Virus genome (UHGV): UHGV-0210680
Reading direction: 5' to 3' (one strand)
DNA from: a virus
Length of the DNA stretch: 40,134 nt
The notes beneath the pieces are model-generated. The model was not told the DNA's origin. It was given only the letters and a program-made list of their open reading frames with translations, and did no database searches. This document shows, piece after piece, positions 17,773-38,302 of this stretch (position 1 is the stretch's first letter; every line of letters starts with the position of its first letter). Both the position numbers and the translations under genes were made by a program.

Positions 17773-18780
17773 TCATATTATCTTATTCAAATACTTTAAT
17801 TTACTAATAATCAAGCTAGCTGCTAAAGAAGATGCAAAAACTACCACTATCATAAAGAGCATGTATACAATAGAGAATGCATTTATTTTTAATAAATGTC
17901 TCAATAAATAAGAGTAAAGCTCAATAAAAATAGGATGTATTAAATACACTCCAAGTGTTAGGCTTGCTAGTTTTTTTGATAATAACGACTCTCCACCATT
18001 GATTGAAGAACATATCGCGAATATTAACACCGATGAAATAAAAACATTTAAGCTTAAATAGTCATAGAAATACACTCGACCAAACTTATAAGCTAAAATA
18101 GCCGTTATTATCAATGAAATTAATGTGAATATAGTACACATGCAAAGTTTTTCTGTTTTCTTTGCCCTAAACACACCACCAATAACGAAGTAGCCTATAT
18201 AATTTAAAAATGTTATCATGAAAAATTGCGGTTTGTTGTTTTCCATGCCAACAACGTTGTTGTATATTAGATTAATCAATGGCAATGCAGAGCATATTAC
18301 AATGAGGATTGTTACTTCATTATCACTTGATTTTGCAATTATTTTTCTTAAAAAAGGCGTTATAATATATAAAAAAGGAATCATATATAAAAACCACATA
18401 TGGTAATATGGTTTACCAGCTAAAAGCTGTTTTATTGATGTTATAACCCCTAGAGTTATATCACCTTTGATGTATGACTTAAATATTGTCCATGCGATAT
18501 ATATCATCGTCCATGCCAATACTGGGATCAATATCCTCGTCATTCTTTTTTTGTAAAAACTAATTGTAGAATCCGTTCCATTTATCAAAAAGTAACCACT
18601 CAACATAACAAAAACAGGAACGCTCCATCTGCTGAATGAATCAAGAATATTTGCAGACCACCAAAGTGTAGATCCATAGAAGCTTGGGTTAGTATCTGCG
18701 AAAGTAACATACCCAGCTGTGACATGTATAACAACAACCATAAAAATGGCAAATACTCTTAAATTATAAGCCCACTGCAT
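17773..18780 (-). CDS. oac: O-antigen O-acetyltransferase (acyltransferase-3 family integral membrane protein)
   Basis: 335-aa, very hydrophobic multi-pass ORF with an N-terminal motif typical of the acyltransferase-3 family (RVFAIFMVVVIHV...W.......FSRWSVP.FVMLSGYFL); very AT-rich; sits between tailspike and int as oac does in Sf6. Confidence 0.8.
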   Translation of the reverse strand: MQWAYNLRVFAIFMVVVIHVTAGYVTFADTNPSFYGSTLWWSANILDSFSRWSVPVFVMLSGYFLINGTDSTISFYKKRMTRILIPVLAWTMIYIAWTIFKSYIKGDITLGVITSIKQLLAGKPYYHMWFLYMIPFLYIITPFLRKIIAKSSDNEVTILIVICSALPLINLIYNNVVGMENNKPQFFMITFLNYIGYFVIGGVFRAKKTEKLCMCTIFTLISLIITAILAYKFGRVYFYDYLSLNVFISSVLIFAICSSINGGESLLSKKLASLTLGVYLIHPIFIELYSYLLRHLLKINAFSIVYMLFMIVVVFASSLAASLIISKLKYLNKII

Positions 18781-20361: not shown

Positions 20362-20562
20362 TTACCCATTAGCGCGGCTTAAGAGCTTATTTTTGAATTC
20401 ACAATGGTCACGATATAACCATCTTGCTCGCCCGTGGATAACTTTGGCTTTTGGCAGGTCGCCGGACTTAATCCGGTCATAGATGAAGGTTTTACCGAAG
20501 CCAGTATCAGCCATGATGAATTTCAAATCAACCAGGGAATCAGGCTGTAGTTCGTGTTGCAT
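20362..20562 (-). CDS. xis: excisionase / AlpA-family DNA-binding protein
   Basis: 66-aa ORF adjacent to int on the same strand, with an AlpA/Xis-like winged-helix pattern (..ADTGFGKTFIYDRIKSGDLPKAKVIHGRARW...). Confidence 0.7.
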   Translation of the reverse strand: MQHELQPDSLVDLKFIMADTGFGKTFIYDRIKSGDLPKAKVIHGRARWLYRDHCEFKNKLLSRANG

Positions 20563-20685
20563 GAGTGCTATCTCCGAATAGGGAATCGAACCTGCAAATC
20601 AGGTAATAAAAAAACCGCATTGATGCGGCGATGGTAGGTCTGGATATCTTGATAAATGAAAATGCCTCATCGAGTGTGAGGCGGG

Positions 20686-21030
20686 TTAGTCCTTGCGTAG
20701 CTCGCTGATTCTTCTGTAAGTCTCTGGTGCTTTGTTTCCGTGTATCTTCATTTCAGACTTCAACAGAGCAACGAGAGAATCCCATTCGTTGAGGATTCCT
20801 TTGAATGCCGGAGCGCGCTTTGCAACCTTGTCGAATGAATCTCTGATTTCTGGAATCTGCTCGACAAGTGCAACGCATCGCCGGAAGTCTGCTGCGTCAT
20901 GTGGAGCGCCGAAGTAATGACCATAGATATTCTTTTTCAGTCCACATGCGATCGAGGCAAGAGTTGCGCTACTGATGCCGACATCGCCAGTCGATTGCCA
21001 TTTCAAAATCTTCATAGCCAAATCTGACAT
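20686..21030 (-). CDS. hypothetical early-accessory protein
   Basis: 114-aa ORF in the int-proximal accessory region; followed on its strand by hairpin plus U-run structures (about 20605..20680). Confidence 0.45.
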   Translation of the reverse strand: MSDLAMKILKWQSTGDVGISSATLASIACGLKKNIYGHYFGAPHDAADFRRCVALVEQIPEIRDSFDKVAKRAPAFKGILNEWDSLVALLKSEMKIHGNKAPETYRRISELRKD

Positions 21031-21087
21031 TTCTTGTCTCCATAAAACAAAACCCGCCGTAGCGAGTTCAGATAAAAGAAATCCGCA

Positions 21088-21888
21088 TTAAGCGGCGTCG
21101 GTGAATTCAAATAAAAAACCGGCTTGCGCCGGCTCTCTCATCTTTCTGTCTACCCATGCTGATATCGATGGCGGGTGCACCTTTTCAATAGCAGCGCGAA
21201 GTACAGCTGTACGTGCCAGTTTGTCGGTAATCTCAGGAAATCGCTTCTCTGTCTTCGGTACGTTAACAGCAACATTAGTAGAATCCGCACTGGCGAACGG
21301 ATACATACCAAGAACTCTCACGTCGAGCATTCGAAGACCATGAATTTTCACTTTCAAATTACGATTGATATAAAGCTCAGTGAAAACTTCATCCATTCTC
21401 TGTTCCCACCATTTAGAGCGTATGTGCCTGTGTGGGCCGCAGCATCCAATCGCCACCCATTCAAATTTGCCAGAAAGGCGTAAAAGACGTTCAATTGATT
21501 CGTCGGTATGCCAGACAGGAACCGCTTTTGATTTTAGCCAATCAGGAACCAACTCAATCTGCTCGTCGTTTTCTGCCTCTGTCCCTTCGATAACGTCAGG
21601 TATAAGAAACCATTCAATTCTGCTGAACCACTTCCCAACAAAGTCGTAGAATTTTGCTCGTCTCTTACTCCAGTCTACCGGGGTGCCTTTCTTTAATGCT
21701 TTCATCCAGTCGCTAAAAGCACCGTTATCAAGGCGTATATCACAAGGGAACATGGCAATCTTTTTCATCTGCTCTGGTCTGGCAAATGAAACAAAAGCCC
21801 CACCATCACGGTAAAGGGCTTTAATCAGCATATCTGTAGGGGCATGCTCATCCCCCCATATTGGGCTGCCGTGAAAGTGGATGGTCAT
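21088..21888 (-). CDS. hypothetical protein (largest ORF of the early-accessory region)
   Basis: 266-aa ORF with no family recognised by eye; contains a conserved-looking His/Cys segment (AIGCCGPHRH). Confidence 0.5.
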   Translation of the reverse strand: MTIHFHGSPIWGDEHAPTDMLIKALYRDGGAFVSFARPEQMKKIAMFPCDIRLDNGAFSDWMKALKKGTPVDWSKRRAKFYDFVGKWFSRIEWFLIPDVIEGTEAENDEQIELVPDWLKSKAVPVWHTDESIERLLRLSGKFEWVAIGCCGPHRHIRSKWWEQRMDEVFTELYINRNLKVKIHGLRMLDVRVLGMYPFASADSTNVAVNVPKTEKRFPEITDKLARTAVLRAAIEKVHPPSISAWVDRKMREPAQAGFLFEFTDAA

Positions 21889-22016
21889 ATTATCCCCATA
21901 TAAAAGAAATCCCCGCGAGTGCGAGGATTGTTATTGTCTTTTCTTCGTGCATTTGTCGCACTTTCGGCACCATCCAGATAGGCACATCCGTCCGCAATTA
22001 ACACATATAGGCCACA

Positions 22017-22298
22017 TCATTTTTCCTCTTTTGGTTTATGAATCTGAATGGTCATGCCGCTTTGAGTGGTGACTACAATGACAGAACCTGGCTGAAGACT
22101 GTTAAGATTGAATGCTTCGTAAAACGAATCCAATGCCAGTGCTTTTTTATTCTTTCGGTTCCACCAACGCCATCCCTTGCTACAGGCTACACTGACAATC
22201 CACTGTCCACTCCTGTAAGCCATATAAAACCAGATGAGCAAAACCTGAAGGAATGCTATCCAGTCAATGATCGTATATTTCGCGAAGGAGTCCATCAC
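22017..22298 (-). CDS. hypothetical small membrane protein
   Basis: 93-aa ORF with a hydrophobic N-terminal segment (IIDWIAFLQVLLIWFYMAY); start overlaps the upstream gene's stop. Confidence 0.4.
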   Translation of the reverse strand: MMDSFAKYTIIDWIAFLQVLLIWFYMAYRSGQWIVSVACSKGWRWWNRKNKKALALDSFYEAFNLNSLQPGSVIVVTTQSGMTIQIHKPKEEK

Positions 22299-22591
22299 TT
22301 CACCTCCTGCGGAGTAGCCTTTACAAGCACTGGTGTAAATCCATCTTCATTAAGGTTATGAATATAGACTTCTGTTCTCCTGCGCTCTTCAACGTTTAAT
22401 ATGGTTTCTGGATCATAAACCCATACTTTCATTCGACTATTCCATGAAGAAATCGCTTCAGATTTAGTTCGTTTTTCTGGTCCTTGGGCACCACATGTGC
22501 ATGACACATAGCGCATTTTCCCTCTGATACTGAATGAGTATCCGATGTTAAGCACAGTGGAACCACAGAATGGGCAGCGATAGAGATTCAT
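22295..22591 (-). CDS. Lar-family restriction alleviation protein (zinc ribbon)
   Basis: N-terminus MNLYRCPFCG...(22 aa)...CTCGAQGP....TKSEAISSWNSR has the Lar/RalR-family signature of two Cys pairs plus the EAI..WN.R motif; C-terminal ~40 aa extension. Confidence 0.6.
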   Translation of the reverse strand: MNLYRCPFCGSTVLNIGYSFSIRGKMRYVSCTCGAQGPEKRTKSEAISSWNSRMKVWVYDPETILNVEERRRTEVYIHNLNEDGFTPVLVKATPQEVK

Positions 22592-23067
22592 AAATCATCC
22601 ACCTTAGGCGCAGCTGAGACAGCAACATTCCAGAACTCAGAAAACATATTGTATGCACCAGATAGATTGGAAGTGGCATACCCTCCAAGCTCACTTCTAA
22701 TCTGAACGGCTCTCATCATTTCCGGCGTTAACTCCTTCGGCACCATAACCCAACCATCCGGAGTTACCGGCACTGGCTTGGCGGTATAAAGCGGTGTTAT
22801 ATCTGCCCGAAAATTACATGCTTTATGCAGCCGCCCCCACCGTTCGACTTCTGCTTTGTCAGAATACATACCAGTGAACGTGTTATATTCACGGTCAATT
22901 TGCGTGAAAGTTATCTTCCACGCCACCGTCTCTGCTTCCAACGATGCCAGTGCAATCCGTGCCAGTTCTTCCGCTTCTTCTGCTGGCAGTACAACGTTGC
23001 TACCAGGTCCGTATGTTTCGCGCCACTGCTGGATTGTCAGTAGGCGTTCTTTGGTAATAGTGATCAT
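22588..23067 (-). CDS. hypothetical protein
   Basis: 159-aa ORF translationally coupled (4-nt overlaps) to its neighbours in the leftward early operon. Confidence 0.45.
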   Translation of the reverse strand: MITITKERLLTIQQWRETYGPGSNVVLPAEEAEELARIALASLEAETVAWKITFTQIDREYNTFTGMYSDKAEVERWGRLHKACNFRADITPLYTAKPVPVTPDGWVMVPKELTPEMMRAVQIRSELGGYATSNLSGAYNMFSEFWNVAVSAAPKVDDL

Positions 23068-23579
23068 GCTGCGTTTCCTTCTTTCTTATTAACAATTACA
23101 CCGTCATATATTTCATTAAGGTGCCCTCTCAACTCCATGCGCCTTAATGCAGATAACATGTAATCGCATTCAACCTGCTTATTTCCAGTAAATGGCTTAT
23201 CGTCAGGATTACTCCAACAGCAATTACCCTTGGGCCACCCATGTACTTTCCGTACTCTTCCGTTAACAACGTGAAGTAATCCCCAGCCAGGTGGTAAATC
23301 CTCAATTGAAATAATTCCCGGCTCACTAATAAAGAATCGCCAGTCGCCCATTCCAAGAGACGGATTTTTACGAAAACGCTTTTTTCTATCTGCCAACAAG
23401 TCAGCACGAGAACACTTCGCCTCTATCAGGCATGATGCTGAATTTCTGAATCCCATAGCATCTGGCTGTTCTCCGGTACTGGTTACAGCTATAAAGCGGT
23501 CATGAAAACAAACCTTGAACCCGTTGCGCTTAAGGAACTTGTACGCAATCTGACAGAGTTCGCAGTGTGTTAACGCCAT
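23064..23579 (-). CDS. hypothetical protein, possible PD-(D/E)xK-type nuclease
   Basis: 171 aa from the ATG at 23579 (MALTHCELCQ...); contains a D...(17 aa)...E-A-K arrangement (FHD...CLIEAK) reminiscent of a PD-(D/E)xK core. Weak, motif-level only. Confidence 0.4.
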   Translation of the reverse strand: MALTHCELCQIAYKFLKRNGFKVCFHDRFIAVTSTGEQPDAMGFRNSASCLIEAKCSRADLLADRKKRFRKNPSLGMGDWRFFISEPGIISIEDLPPGWGLLHVVNGRVRKVHGWPKGNCCWSNPDDKPFTGNKQVECDYMLSALRRMELRGHLNEIYDGVIVNKKEGNAA

Positions 23580-23580
23580 A

Positions 23581-24015
23581 TCACTCTCCTTTGATGCGAA
23601 TGCCAGTAGCGCGGATTGCATCGATGACTTCAGAAACTTTGTATGCCATTACCGTTTGGTAATCATCGTGAAAATCTGTTCGATGAAGCATGCTGCTACG
23701 TTCCGGGAGCAGTATTTCCCGCACCTCCAGTTCTGCTATGCGCTTTTTTGCTGTTTCCAGCTCGCCCAGCAGCGCTAAGACGGTAGCCGGATTGGCTGCA
23801 GCGATGAATTCAGCATTGGCCTGCTGTTCCATTTGGAAATCTTCATCGAAACCGCTTTCAGGATGCGCTCCTTCAATTCTGCAAATGGGAATATATCCAA
23901 CAACGTCACGATGAATTAGCGCATCATCACAATCAAATCTCTCCTCTCCATATTCGAGCGACCACACCCCCCCACGTTTCTTTTTCTGCCTTTTCACGCA
24001 GTGCCTGATAGTCAA
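23581..24015 (-). CDS. Ead/Ea22-like early protein
   Basis: 144-aa ORF with the NAEFIAAANPATVLALLGELE motif that I associate with the Ead/Ea22-like prophage family; a related motif recurs in ORF 27996..28292. Confidence 0.5.
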   Translation of the reverse strand: MTIRHCVKRQKKKRGGVWSLEYGEERFDCDDALIHRDVVGYIPICRIEGAHPESGFDEDFQMEQQANAEFIAAANPATVLALLGELETAKKRIAELEVREILLPERSSMLHRTDFHDDYQTVMAYKVSEVIDAIRATGIRIKGE

Positions 24016-24026
24016 TCTTGCTCATA

Positions 24027-24347
24027 TCACATCACCCTGAATCCGTTGCATTTACGTAAGAAATCGCAGATGTAGCCCTTCATTTTTTCATGCCAATCTC
24101 GATCATTCCCATTGCACCAACCATCAGGTGGAGTCCAGTTTTCTATCAGAGCAGCCATTTTCTTTGCTTTCGCCGGAGTAGCTGTTGCGGTATCGCAGTA
24201 ATGACGAGTGTCAACCAACGCATCCATACCATCGATATCAAGTACGCAAAACCATGTGTGATTCGGAATTCCTACAGGTGGTATTTGTTGCCCACGTCGA
24301 CGTTTATCAATAAGATATACACTCACTGCTTGCCTCCTTTGCGCCAC
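24027..24347 (-). CDS. hypothetical protein
   Basis: 106-aa ORF in the leftward early operon; the start is uncertain. Confidence 0.4.
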
Positions 24348-24508
24348 ATCGCATTCAGATATTTGTTTTGATTTACTGATGGAAAAGAATTTCTCTTAAG
24401 CAATTCCTCTCTCGATGGCATTGGCTTTACGCGTTGGCGAATAATCATTTCTGCCGGAAGAATGCCTGGATTGTATGCAAGTCCTCTCATGGTAAATTCC
24501 TCAGTCAT
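24323..24508 (-). CDS. hypothetical small protein
   Basis: An internal ATG ([15 protein letters not shown]...) of ORF 24323..24643 gives a 61-aa product with minimal overlap with the upstream gene; the longer N-terminal extension overlaps ORF 24501..24797 heavily. Confidence 0.3.
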
Positions 24509-24797
24509 TACTGATAGCGCCATAGCGTGAGCGGTAATTACGCAGGCGCGGGTCGATATATTCAGGGAAGTGGGTATATGTGGCTTTGCGGAATGGTCGG
24601 ATTGATGTCTGGTAAATTCGCTCGCGCTCTTCTTTCTCTGCAAGCCATATACAATGGCGAAATTCCTTTTCCTCTTTCGTTTCCTGCGGTAGAGACATTA
24701 TTCGATCGTAGTTTTTTCTGAATTTATCCAGCACTTCCGATACGGAATTGCCGGAACAGCGGCGTGGGTCATCCGCACCATACAGAGGCGCTGGCAT
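24501..24797 (-). CDS. hypothetical protein
   Basis: 98-aa ORF immediately downstream of the SSB-like gene in the same operon. Confidence 0.45.
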
Positions 24798-27362: not shown

Positions 27363-27674
27363 TCAGGCTGCTGAGGTTTCTTCTTTCAGGCTTTCGATAT
27401 ATTTACGTGGGTCGTCGTAACATTGGCATTCGCTGTACCAATCTACCCAGCGATCCGTAAGCTCCATCTCTGATAAATCTTCATCAGTAAGGCTCTCATC
27501 CCACATCTCAAGGCCGTTAGCATTGCAGTAGTCAGGCTTGATGTTGTTGTCATACTGAAAGGCATCATAATCAGCCAGTGCATCCATCAGGCGAACACCC
27601 TCTTCAACACTTGCCACTTCTACAATGAACGGCTTCATAGGTACTTGCGGGATATGCCAGACACGTAATTTCAT
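27363..27674 (-). CDS. hypothetical acidic protein
   Basis: 103-aa ORF in the pL operon with a good coding appearance; no family recognised. Confidence 0.45.
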   Translation of the reverse strand: MKLRVWHIPQVPMKPFIVEVASVEEGVRLMDALADYDAFQYDNNIKPDYCNANGLEMWDESLTDEDLSEMELTDRWVDWYSECQCYDDPRKYIESLKEETSAA

Positions 27675-28331: not shown

Positions 28332-28532
28332 TCAGGCAGCCTTGTTATTCTGTTTACCAAGTTCTCTGGCAATCATTGCCGTCGTTCGTATTGCCCATTT
28401 ATCGACATATTTCCCATCCTCCATTACAGGAAACATTTCTTCAGGCTTAACCATGCATTCCGATTGCAGCTTGCATCCATTGCATCGTTTGAATTGTCCA
28501 CACCATTGATTCTTATCAATAGTCGTAGTCAT
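28332..28532 (-). CDS. ral: Ral restriction-alleviation protein
   Basis: 66-aa Cys-containing ORF (MTTTIDKNQWCGQFKRCNGCKLQSEC...) next to N in the pL operon, matching the size and position of lambda ral; sequence identity recalled but not verified. Confidence 0.65.
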   Translation of the reverse strand: MTTTIDKNQWCGQFKRCNGCKLQSECMVKPEEMFPVMEDGKYVDKWAIRTTAMIARELGKQNNKAA

Positions 28533-28610: not shown

Positions 28611-28937
28611 TCAAATAAGTGGTTTGCTGCCTAATTTCATTTTCTGGCGACCAACACAAGTCACACCCATTTCACTGCGTGGCTTGCTGTACCATGTGCG
28701 CTGATTCTTGCGTTCAATACGTTGCAGGTTGCTTTCAATCTGTTCGTGGTATTCAGCCAGCACCGTAAGGTCTATCGGATTCAGTGCGCTTTCTACTCGT
28801 GATTTCGGTTTGCGATTCAGCGAGAGAATAGGGCGGTTAACTGGTTTTGCGCTTACCCCAACCAACAGGGGATTTGCTGCTTTCCATTGAGCCTGTTTCT
28901 CTGCGCGACGTTCGCGGCGGCGTGTTTGTGCATCCAT
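28611..28937 (-). CDS. N: N antitermination protein
   Basis: From the ATG at 28937: MDAQTRRRERRAEKQAQWKAANPLLVGVSAKPVNRPILSLNRKPKSRVESALNPIDLTVLAEYH.QIESNLQRIERKNQRTWYSKP... matches lambda N, including the Arg-rich boxB-binding N-terminus. The track's upstream extension is not used. Confidence 0.92.
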   Translation of the reverse strand: MDAQTRRRERRAEKQAQWKAANPLLVGVSAKPVNRPILSLNRKPKSRVESALNPIDLTVLAEYHEQIESNLQRIERKNQRTWYSKPRSEMGVTCVGRQKMKLGSKPLI

Positions 28938-29370: not shown

Positions 29371-30303
29371 TTAAAGAACCGATTTAACAAGATGGTTTTT
29401 ACGGTACAGACCTATGCGATCATTGTGAATCTCAGTAGTCTCCACTAAAAGAGAAACAATCTGTCCGACCTTGTGTTTTTTTTGTATTAAATCTAGCATT
29501 TCAATCGGATAGGAAGCCTTTAAATGTTCACCACCAACATCAAGCTCCAGCTTCCCATATTTGGATAGAACGACCAGTTCGCCTGTAACCGTTTCAGTAA
29601 TGGGAGGGGATGAAATGGTTGATGTAAGTCTACTCACCAAGTACTTAATTTTATTGGAGTCAATAGTTGCCACCTTGGTGCCATTACTAAATGGACCGGT
29701 CCAACTTGCATCAAATGTTAAGTTGTGTTTATCGCATTCCTCTACGATTCTCTTAAGGCTTACAGTGGAATTGTATCCAATTTCAGCGACGTGATTCATG
29801 AAGTTGTTGTCGTCATCGCTTAACAACAAATCGAATATGCCTTTTACAGCCTTGCTGGGTACTGTTTCTACTAATTCTGCTATTCCTGTAGAGAAGGTGA
29901 CGCCCAATTTTGTAGACCCAGGGGATAAATCAGCCAGCCTGAGGTTTAAGGAGCTTTTCACGTCGTAGGGAACTTTTTTTGAGTCCTTGCCTGAGGCAAT
30001 TTTGTGTGTTGCTCTTTGTATTAGCGCTGCAAGATTTGTTGAAATAGCCCCAAGCAGCTCTAAAGGAATAGAGCCAAAGTCAACCTCAGAGCCTTTCAGC
30101 CGCAGCTCAAAAAAATCGATAAGTGGGTGCCGACTATCTTGCTTTAATTTTTCGGCCTTCAAATCGCTCAGATGAGAATCCATGGAGCGATAAAGAAGCA
30201 TGTCAGCAAAGGACCTGGTTTTGTTTTGCTTCATTGCATCGACTTCTTTTTGAATGAAATCAATGCGTTTATCGCAATTTTTAAACATTGATTTATCATT
30301 CAT
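29371..30303 (-). CDS. hypothetical 310-aa protein, second gene of the rexAB-slot cassette
   Basis: Soluble-looking K/S/L-rich ORF with no recognisable motif; its start overlaps the stop of the upstream nucleotidyltransferase-fold gene by 4 nt (ATGA); AT-rich relative to the lambda-like flanks. Confidence 0.6.
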   Translation of the reverse strand: MNDKSMFKNCDKRIDFIQKEVDAMKQNKTRSFADMLLYRSMDSHLSDLKAEKLKQDSRHPLIDFFELRLKGSEVDFGSIPLELLGAISTNLAALIQRATHKIASGKDSKKVPYDVKSSLNLRLADLSPGSTKLGVTFSTGIAELVETVPSKAVKGIFDLLLSDDDNNFMNHVAEIGYNSTVSLKRIVEECDKHNLTFDASWTGPFSNGTKVATIDSNKIKYLVSRLTSTISSPPITETVTGELVVLSKYGKLELDVGGEHLKASYPIEMLDLIQKKHKVGQIVSLLVETTEIHNDRIGLYRKNHLVKSVL

Positions 30304-30779
30304 AAAAAAATCCTCACTAACCCTTTCGGGTTTTCACTGCGATCAAAACCAAACCAACCGCGCCAGTAGCTACGCCAGTACTCATAATCATAGTTAGGGT
30401 CATCTAAATTCTTCATGAGTAGTAGGACATCAATTTTGTAGTTTTGTTTGATGTAGTTTCGGTCAAGCAAATTATCGACGCGGCCCCGAAGCATGACAGG
30501 TATTGAGTTTATATTGCTATAGTCACATACCAACAAAATATCAATATCATCAGGCTCTGGTTTAGACGTGGTGTATGAACCATCAACCCATATTTCTGTA
30601 AAACAGCCATATTGAGCAGATAATTCTCGAATAGATTCGAGTAGCTGTATAAAATTACAGTATAGCATGCCTCGCCTGGATGATGAAGGAAAGCAATCGA
30701 CACAATACGATTTTAATCCAGCTTCATCCATGTCATGGAACCCTGGCTCAAACAGGGGTGGGTAATTAATTTTATCCAT
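30300..30779 (-). CDS. small nucleotidyltransferase-fold (Pol-beta superfamily / MNT-like) protein, first gene of the rexAB-slot cassette
   Basis: 159 aa from the ATG at 30779 (AAGG RBS upstream); contains the h-G-S...D-x-D signature (IWVDGSYTTSKPEPDDIDILLV) and a later acidic residue (KIDVLLL) typical of minimal nucleotidyltransferases. The ORF track starts further upstream (30827), at a codon that is not ATG by my reading. Confidence 0.55.
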   Translation of the reverse strand: MDKINYPPLFEPGFHDMDEAGLKSYCVDCFPSSSRRGMLYCNFIQLLESIRELSAQYGCFTEIWVDGSYTTSKPEPDDIDILLVCDYSNINSIPVMLRGRVDNLLDRNYIKQNYKIDVLLLMKNLDDPNYDYEYWRSYWRGWFGFDRSENPKGLVRIFL

Positions 30780-38146: not shown

Positions 38147-38221
38147 GGGTCAGTCGTATAAAGGTCATTACGGAAGGCTGTTAACCTTCTTATCGTGGTT
38201 CGAGTCCACGCTGTCCCGCCA
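38147..38221 (+). tRNA. tRNA-Asn (anticodon GTT), phage-encoded
   Basis: 75 nt folded by hand: 7-bp acceptor stem with one U-U mismatch, anticodon stem GAAGG/CCTTC with loop CTGTTAA (U33, GTT, A37), T-arm CGTGG-TTCGAGT-CCACG, discriminator G and encoded CCA. The anticodon loop and T-loop match E. coli tRNA-Asn; the D-stem is only 3 bp. Confidence 0.6.
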
Positions 38222-38226
38222 AATAT

Positions 38227-38302
38227 GCTGGTTTAGCTCCAATGGTAGAGCAGTCGCCTTGTAAGCGAATGGGTAGCGGTTCAAGTCCGTTAACCAGCAC
38301 CA
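38227..38302 (+). tRNA. tRNA-Thr (anticodon TGT), phage-encoded
   Basis: 76 nt folded by hand: perfect 7-bp acceptor stem GCTGGTT/AACCAGC, D-arm GCTC-CAATGGTA-GAGC, anticodon loop CTTGTAA (TGT), T-arm AGCGG-TTCAAGT-CCGTT, discriminator A and encoded CCA. Confidence 0.75.

Follow-up and report, generated by a model that had tools for sequence, protein, structure and literature searches.

A mosaic accessory region of a P22-like coliphage encoding Abc2, a Lar-family protein, a predicted singleton DpdA and an MmcB-like nuclease

Results

Layout of the block between the recombination genes and xis

We analysed the block of leftward genes at positions 20,686 to 24,797 of the viral genome UHGV-0210680 (40,134 nucleotides, hereafter the window). 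The block is an ordinary mosaic accessory region whose products include Abc2, a singleton DpdA, a member of the Lar family and an MmcB-like nuclease, all with predicted activities. The 40-kb window is an essentially complete genome of a P22-like temperate phage. Its virion genes terminate with a tailspike bearing the P22 head-binding domain; an acyltransferase moron followed by int and xis lies near the attachment end; the leftward early operon comprises N, ral, gp17, cIII, kil, erf and abc2; and the remainder holds cI/cII, a DnaB-type replication module, the nin genes, Q, two tRNAs and the lysis genes. The block sits between the recombination genes and xis, with the early genes from N to abc2 upstream and xis and int downstream, all in leftward orientation. 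Its left boundary is formed by xis (20362..20562, minus strand, phrog_66), which encodes a TorI/AlpA-type excisionase; identical genes carry the TorI annotation in E. coli genomes and in Sf6.

A first-pass annotation, made from the DNA letters without database searches, had described nine leftward open reading frames (ORFs) in the block. All nine were recovered at the same coordinates, and they are genes rather than chance ORFs because each has strong homologues. The count holds for ORFs of at least 90 aa; a tenth gene, encoding the DUF2737 protein (24323..24490, 55 aa), had been overlooked, and the total for the block was put at 11 genes. The genes had also been described as mostly translationally coupled, which applies from abc2 through DUF4752 only, where the spacers at seven consecutive junctions range from -4 to +10 nt. 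It does not apply to dpdA, the gene for a 114-aa protein and xis, which are preceded by gaps of 128, 57 and 123 nt, respectively. A consensus scan placed terminator-like hairpins around the dpdA and 114-aa genes, which are stand-alone cassettes flanked by these hairpins. One hairpin, a presumed terminator, lies just upstream of dpdA (21908..21929), another with an 11-bp stem and T6 lies within the disordered 3' tail of dpdA (21113..21138), and further ones were located at 21050..21069, 20664..20682 and 20614..20629 (all minus strand).

Assignment of the 266-aa protein to the DpdA family

The 266-aa product of 21088..21888 (minus strand), which the first-pass annotation could not place, was assigned to the DpdA family through PHROGs, through identity with gp29 of phage HK106 and through profile alignment with the DpdA of phage CAjan. 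It matched phrog_887 ('queuine tRNA-ribosyltransferase') at E 1.4e-102; identity was 98.9% with HK106 gp29 (YP_007151699) and 58% with DpdA from Salmonella phage 7-11. These relationships make it a 'singleton' DNA guanine transglycosylase of the DpdA type, a known family that swaps guanine in DNA for a 7-deazaguanine base. YP_007151699 is catalogued among the phages that have DpdA yet lack genes for making preQ0 or G+ (Hutinet 2019, PMC6884629 supplementary file 4); other gamma-proteobacterial phages of this DpdA-only group are SfI, BTP1, SPN3UB, PEAT2 and Salmonella phage 7-11 (PMC6884629). The window gene shares with the HK106 type the protein family, the absence of preQ0 pathway genes and the early-left accessory position near xis, with no substantive difference between them.

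Using hhalign, a 36-sequence family profile was aligned with the genetically validated CAjan DpdA over ~150 columns at 95.1% for the single sequence and 95.7% for a 4-sequence CAjan profile (E 3e-8 to 8.9e-9). The alignment pairs LDNGAFS with LDSGAFS and SADSTNV with SCDSSSW, and these motifs correspond to D95/F99 (the general acid/base Asp and the stacking Phe) and D256 (the nucleophile) of bacterial DpdA, residues shown to be essential in that enzyme (PMC10164549). Across the 36 homologues of the 266-aa protein D54, D98, H127, H183 and D202 are invariant, and the motifs D54-N-G-A-F58 and D202-S203, which match LDSGAFS and CDSS of CAjan, are kept in 36/36.

DpdA1 of CAjan and 9g (Queuovirinae) are validated insertases of preQ0/G+ into DNA. 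Their D-x-G-A-F-S and D-S-S/T motifs align with the window DpdA, and both share with it a predicted TIM-barrel core and the lack of a Zn-binding Cys cluster. The differences are a sequence identity of ~20%, the complete FolE-QueD-QueE-QueC set encoded by CAjan and 9g, and the replacement of 25-32% of G in those two phages. The Cys cluster typical of tRNA-guanine transglycosylase (TGT) and of bacterial DpdA is absent from the 266-aa protein, which contains only Cys49, Cys149 and Cys150, none of them after D202, and ends ~60 residues past this nucleophile; the validated CAjan DpdA equally lacks the cluster. Bacterial DpdA (PDB 7UI4) has 413 aa, includes a large Ins8/Zn subdomain and requires the DpdB ATPase, whereas the window protein is a bare predicted barrel of 266 aa with no partner gene. 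In the structure model of the window DpdA the predicted local distance difference test score (pLDDT) was below 50 at residues 256-266; with the strong hairpin lying in this tail, the final ~15 codons may simply reflect translation reading through a terminator or the edge of the cassette. In the gap upstream of dpdA we noted a putative 39-aa, GTG-initiated ORF (21885..22004, minus strand) whose stop codon overlaps the dpdA start (ATGA); in the corresponding gap of HK106 a different ORF, of 29 aa, is annotated.

Genomic context and distribution of dpdA

None of FolE, QueD, QueE, QueC and YhhQ was found in the window by tblastn (best E 0.3), which places its dpdA in the 'DpdA-only' class. YhhQ is a preQ0 transporter according to Hutinet et al. 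(PMC6884629). Neither blastn nor tblastn detected a degraded VUT transporter upstream of the window dpdA, so that DpdA would depend on the host pool.

We compared 79 viral loci encoding relatives of the window protein. Those with a dpdA at least 98% identical were lambdoid, and the gene adjoined xis or the 114-aa gene. In 22 loci with 57-88% identical homologues, a VUT/YhhQ-family gene (PF02592) is present whose stop codon overlaps the dpdA start (VUT-dpdA cassettes: L032-L056, L075); PEAT2 and many of the relatives in this identity range have the transporter gene upstream, and the window allele differs from them in lacking it. Four loci (L040, L042, L043 and L044) encode fusions of DpdA with a Dam-type N6-adenine methylase. 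More distant dpdA genes adjoin D12/C5 DNA methylases (L072, L074, L077) or a P2-type replication gene, and the DNA methylases beside dpdA in some relatives are multi-domain proteins. The arrangement suggests that the cassettes of these relatives are 'DNA-marking' modules joining methylation with 7-deazaguanine insertion.

Of 5426 complete E. coli genomes, 82 contained the window allele of dpdA, annotated as 'hypothetical protein' every time; the allele is at least 98% conserved over more than 25 viral contigs. A constant partner of dpdA among the block genes was rejected, none of them tracking with it across the 79 loci. The 114-aa gene accompanies dpdA in about a third of the near-identical loci and in none of the distant ones, and the PD-(D/E)xK nuclease gene was found at two loci (L013, L036), neither of them distant. 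The window also encodes tRNA-Asn(GUU) (38147..38221) and tRNA-Thr(UGU) (38227..38302), both on the plus strand in the interval from Q to the lysis genes. We considered whether tRNA-Asn(GUU) and dpdA are connected and rejected this, as the same tRNA pair is annotated in Sf6, which has no dpdA.

An MmcB-like PD-(D/E)xK nuclease

For 23064..23579 (minus strand, 171 aa) the first-pass annotation had suggested a PD-(D/E)xK nuclease. This assignment is confirmed by a conserved motif, by a profile match to 3dnx and by the Pfam matches of relatives. In an alignment of 36 sequences (down to 34% identity), which also agrees with the start at 23579, P39-D40 are invariant and E37, E53 and K55 are at least 90% conserved, so that the catalytic motif E...PD...(D/E)xK is preserved as E37, P39-D40 and E53-x-K55. 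The protein has the alpha-beta-beta-beta-alpha-beta core of restriction-endonuclease-like proteins. A broader family profile matched 3dnx at E 5.7e-4. The window protein itself stayed below every Pfam threshold, and among the 36 distant homologues six matched PF06319 (MmcB-like) and six Hjc (PF01870), with a best E of ~1e-4. The family comprises 2603 representative clusters.

Taken together, the block is predicted to encode a small MmcB-like PD-(D/E)xK endonuclease with cleavage activity. Reference members of the MmcB-like group (PF06319) are SPO1766 (PDB 3DNX) and Caulobacter MmcB, a PD-(D/E)xK endonuclease implicated in cross-link repair and encoded by an SOS-regulated chromosomal gene (PMC9578287). 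Caulobacter MmcB is thus a chromosomal repair gene, whereas the window gene is an early phage gene from a family that is sometimes fused to Ead/Ea22. In four proteins of Salmonella and E. coli prophages (P0209, P0210, P0220 and P0129) the nuclease domain follows an Ead/Ea22 N-terminal coiled-coil segment, which indicates that the nuclease is one interchangeable C-terminal module of Ea22-type proteins. In one further case (P0382) it lies behind a TniB-like ATPase region.

The Lar-family protein, Ral and Abc2

The first-pass annotation had also named a Lar-type zinc-ribbon gene at 22295..22591 (minus strand), and its 98-aa product indeed scored above both curated Lar cut-offs over residues 2-54 (TIGR03655, 58.3 bits against 39.6; PF14354, 36.4 against 28.6). 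Its four Cys at positions 6, 9, 31 and 33 align with CPFCG...C..C of Rac RalR. Identity is 96.9% with Sf6 gp20 and 29% with Rac RalR; the protein shares the N-terminal CxxC...CxC zinc ribbon and the WN-R motif with both, and carries a 45-aa C-terminal extension that RalR (64 aa) lacks. It was present in six phage records only.

Outside the block, ral (28332..28532, minus strand) matched PF11058 over residues 1-66 of 66 with 162.5 bits. It adjoins N, as had been noted before; N (PF11438) is encoded at 28611..28937, 79 nt upstream of ral. Sf6 already carries the identical pairing of a Lar-like gene with ral. Ral works through hyperactivating the type I methyltransferase, and Lar reportedly has the same phenotype. 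The first-pass annotation had proposed two distinct anti-restriction functions; both genes are present, and their products are therefore probably redundant rather than complementary. Alleviation of EcoKI restriction or enhancement of modification was reportedly shown by King and Murray in 1995, for Rac Lar only. The window protein probably alleviates type I restriction.

The last ORF of the block (24501..24797, minus strand, 98 aa), whose identity the first-pass annotation had missed, encodes the anti-RecBCD protein Abc2 (PF11043, 206.8 bits, residues 1-98 of 98; phrog_656). Functionally it is part of the recombination module. The structure of Abc2 with RecBCD and its mechanism have been described (PMC9836394).

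Discussion

We propose, with a probability of about 0.75, that the block, transcribed from PL under N antitermination, is a non-essential accessory region of a P22-like coliphage, assembled from independently exchangeable gene cassettes. Lambda's exo-xis region is PL-driven, non-essential and mosaic (PMC10834534). Like this region and the ea region of P22, the block is under PL transcription and occupies the interval from the recombination genes to xis, and it contains an Ea22-type gene and DUF551/EaA-type mosaic proteins and displays extreme mosaicism (PMC10834534). The lambda cassette of orf60a, orf61, orf63 and orf73 is not in the block, which has dpdA, lar and the nuclease gene instead. 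Parts of the block were found in 3576 of the 5426 complete E. coli genomes, and no phage record and none of these genomes holds at least 80% of it in one place; the combination of genes is therefore new. For each cassette a published counterpart exists that is 96-100% identical and annotated alike, so that the novelty resides in the combination alone. Gene identities, motifs, folds, gene context and mosaicism were observed in this analysis.

In contrast to these, we infer all biochemical activities of the block products, the identity of the base inserted by DpdA and any protective effect. Four products, namely Abc2, the Lar-family protein, DpdA and the MmcB-like nuclease, most likely act on host nucleic-acid defences. 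Abc2 would bind and reprogramme RecBCD, and the Lar-family zinc ribbon would alleviate type I restriction, as would Ral encoded further upstream. During lytic growth the stand-alone DpdA may remove guanine from double-stranded phage DNA via a covalent intermediate on Asp-202, with Asp-54 as the putative general acid/base. It would then insert a 7-deazaguanine base, preQ0 or a close derivative, which would be drawn from the host queuosine pathway since the phage carries no synthesis or uptake genes. In line with such an activity, dpdA of 9g expressed alone in E. coli places dPreQ0 in plasmid DNA (PMC6884629). The inserted base might mark or shield a subset of G-containing sites.

Several observations weigh against this interpretation, most of them concerning DpdA. 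The 266-aa protein has no Pfam or NCBIfam match, TGT (PF01702) included; its family profile finds no TGT or DpdA among the PDB sequences, and hhalign of this profile against E. coli Tgt was null (probability 0.4%). PDB sequence searches with the 266-aa protein, as a single sequence and as a profile, gave nothing meaningful, and Foldseek of the DpdA model against the PDB did not distinguish DpdA from generic TIM barrels. A search with the validated CAjan DpdA likewise found no TGT in the PDB, which argues that a match to PF01702 or canonical Tgt is not defining for phage DpdAs. The DNA-modifying activity of HK106-type DpdA is itself a prediction. The DNA of phage 7-11, the nearest relative to have been tested and the one DpdA-only member whose analysed DNA proved modified, contains dADG rather than preQ0, at ~0.02% of G or 50 per 10^6 nt, and the DNA of the DpdA-only phage Orion is without any modification (PMC6884629). 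The density in 7-11 is too low for general protection from restriction, and Hutinet et al. raise functional divergence of singleton DpdAs as a possibility (PMC6884629). Beyond DpdA, the Ea22-like gene is frameshifted, and membership in the Lar family does not establish restriction alleviation because Lar of Rac (RalR) is a DNase toxin.

The last point leads to an alternative for the Lar-like protein, which could primarily be a RalR-type DNase toxin, serving as part of a toxin-antitoxin system or in host shutoff, instead of a restriction alleviator. RalR (formerly Lar) of Rac is a non-specific DNase toxin of a type I toxin-antitoxin pair (PMC4041452), and the E. coli K-12 annotation names it 'endodeoxyribonuclease toxin RalR'. 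The window protein is only 29% identical to RalR and has the additional C-terminal segment, its gene belongs to a lytic operon in which start and stop codons overlap, and an Rfam scan, made to look for an antitoxin RNA like RalA or any other RNA, returned just the two tRNAs, with neither a RalA-like sRNA nor an Rfam family in the block. We therefore regard a toxin as doubtful, though worth keeping in mind. A different objection holds that the singleton DpdA is diverged or effectively silent, inserting nothing or traces and giving no protection, and that the block serves lysis-lysogeny tuning and host takeover rather than counter-defence. The 7-11 and Orion data and the divergence considered by Hutinet et al. 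fit this explanation, as do the pro-lysogenic role of Ea22 and the influence of exo-xis genes on development (PMC10834534) and the fact that five block genes are without a defence-related signal. Set against it are the complete invariance of the catalytic residues and the conservation of the allele among viral contigs and E. coli genomes described above, the fact that close relatives are tightly coupled to a transporter of the preQ0 type, which points to an active 7-deazaguanine enzyme, and the membership of Abc2, Lar and Ral in bona fide counter-defence families; a silent DpdA thus appears unlikely.

It could also be argued that the 266-aa protein works on tRNA and not on DNA, as a tRNA-guanine transglycosylase. 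PHROG and RefSeq name the family 'queuine tRNA-ribosyltransferase', and the window encodes a candidate substrate in its tRNA-Asn(GUU), position 34 of which is a natural queuosine site; we nevertheless consider action on tRNA very improbable. Least credible to us is a modification-restriction pair in which DpdA marks the phage DNA and the PD-(D/E)xK nuclease degrades unmarked host or competitor DNA. The two genes do lie ~1.2 kb apart in one early operon and DNA is the target of both families, but the nuclease gene accompanies dpdA at 2/79 loci and at none of the distant ones, its family is far commoner than this dpdA, and certain nuclease homologues are fused to Ead/Ea22 N-termini instead.

Within the proposal of a DpdA acting on DNA, a more specific role can be imagined for the bare HK106-type enzyme, not as a modifier giving bulk anti-restriction but as a sparse site-specific marker that uses host preQ0 to place a few dPreQ0/dADG per genome, thereby counterfeiting the 'self' mark of a bacterial Dpd system or another modification-reading defence. 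The density in 7-11 (~0.02% of G) resembles the level produced by bacterial DpdA (<0.1% of G; PMC10516641) more than bulk protection. The bacterial Dpd restriction-modification system or other modification-reading defences occur in some Salmonella and E. coli hosts, and with such a mark a temperate phage could pass between Dpd+ and Dpd- hosts. We put this forward as a speculative role with a small chance of being correct.

The block reveals no new kind of system, and its value lies mainly in annotation. Pfam and NCBIfam have no model that catches this dpdA allele, which appears as 'hypothetical protein' in the 82 complete E. coli genomes (RefSeq/PGAP), so that the prophage-borne capacity for 7-deazaguanine DNA modification in E. 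coli is under-reported. Members of PHROG families 9263 and 631, labelled 'unknown function', become interpretable as MmcB-like PD-(D/E)xK nucleases. Coliphages of the P22-like or lambdoid kind that carry dpdA alone furthermore offer a tractable subject for the question, posed since 2019, of what DpdA-only phages insert, where and to what benefit.

Other genes of the block and the window

The Ea22-like, EaA-like, DUF4752, DUF7739, DUF2737 and 114-aa products are conserved phage proteins. The Ead/Ea22-like gene (23581..24025, minus strand) is a short form matching PF13935 with 42.3 bits (cut-off 27), in line with its earlier description; its true start is ATG 24025, and it contains a +1 frameshift in a G7 run. 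The N-terminus MSKIDYQALREKAEKETWG agrees with HkaG of HK620 only after removing one G. Compared with HK620 hkaG and a prophage copy in E. coli ET729, the run at 23967..23973 (minus strand) has one extra G, which breaks the frame after codon 20. The insertion could be a sequencing error in the homopolymer, or else the gene could truly be a pseudogene or contain a phase-variable tract; the exact context of the G run was sought in viral contigs and gave no match.

The DUF2737 protein (24323..24490, minus strand, PF10930, 109 bits) starts 10 nt past the abc2 stop, and a GTGA overlap links its own stop with the start of the DUF7739 protein (24027..24326, minus strand, 99 aa from GTG 24326, PF24881, 68.7 bits); the phrog_1239 alignment begins at residue 8 of the longer DUF7739 ORF. 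The 159-aa protein at 22588..23067 (minus strand, phrog_60) had no DUF551 match itself. An alignment covering 74% of it shows 88% identity to a genuine DUF551 protein (P0350), and its residues 37-159 are 96% identical to P0261, by which it classifies as an EaA-like mosaic of the EaA/DUF551 family. The DUF4752 protein (22017..22295, minus strand, 92 aa, PF15944, 124 bits) has a single hydrophobic N-terminal segment (19-aa Kyte-Doolittle maximum 1.78, residues 8-26). The 114-aa protein (20686..21030, minus strand, phrog_1229, E 8e-51) belongs to a family found in 274 phage records, among them HK022, PY54, SuMu and P22-like, N15-like, Mu-like and Vibrio phages, with conserved W11, G15, G18, S20-S21, P43, D45, D48, R51-C52 and W83. 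An 8-sequence profile of this family gave nothing against Pfam and PDB, PDB sequence searches with the 159-aa and 114-aa proteins (single-sequence and profile) gave nothing meaningful, and PADLOC returned zero matches for the block proteins.

Further observations concern the rest of the window. A P22 gene 17 homologue (27363..27674, minus strand, PF17420, 185 bits) lies in the same PL operon as the block and points to a further function related to host interaction or superinfection exclusion. Adjoining int, a 30-35% GC island encodes a 335-aa membrane acyltransferase (17773..18780, minus strand, Acyl_transf_3), a place where an O-antigen acetylase moron for serotype conversion typically sits. 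Where lambda carries rexAB, between N and cI, a low-GC insert of two genes (29371..30303 and 30300..30779, minus strand) matches the PADLOC candidate PDC-M63, with E 7.5e-45 for the B subunit and E 1.8e-41 for the A subunit, the latter also being Pfam DUF6932; by this similarity the PDC-M63-like insert is probably a prophage-encoded defence moron.

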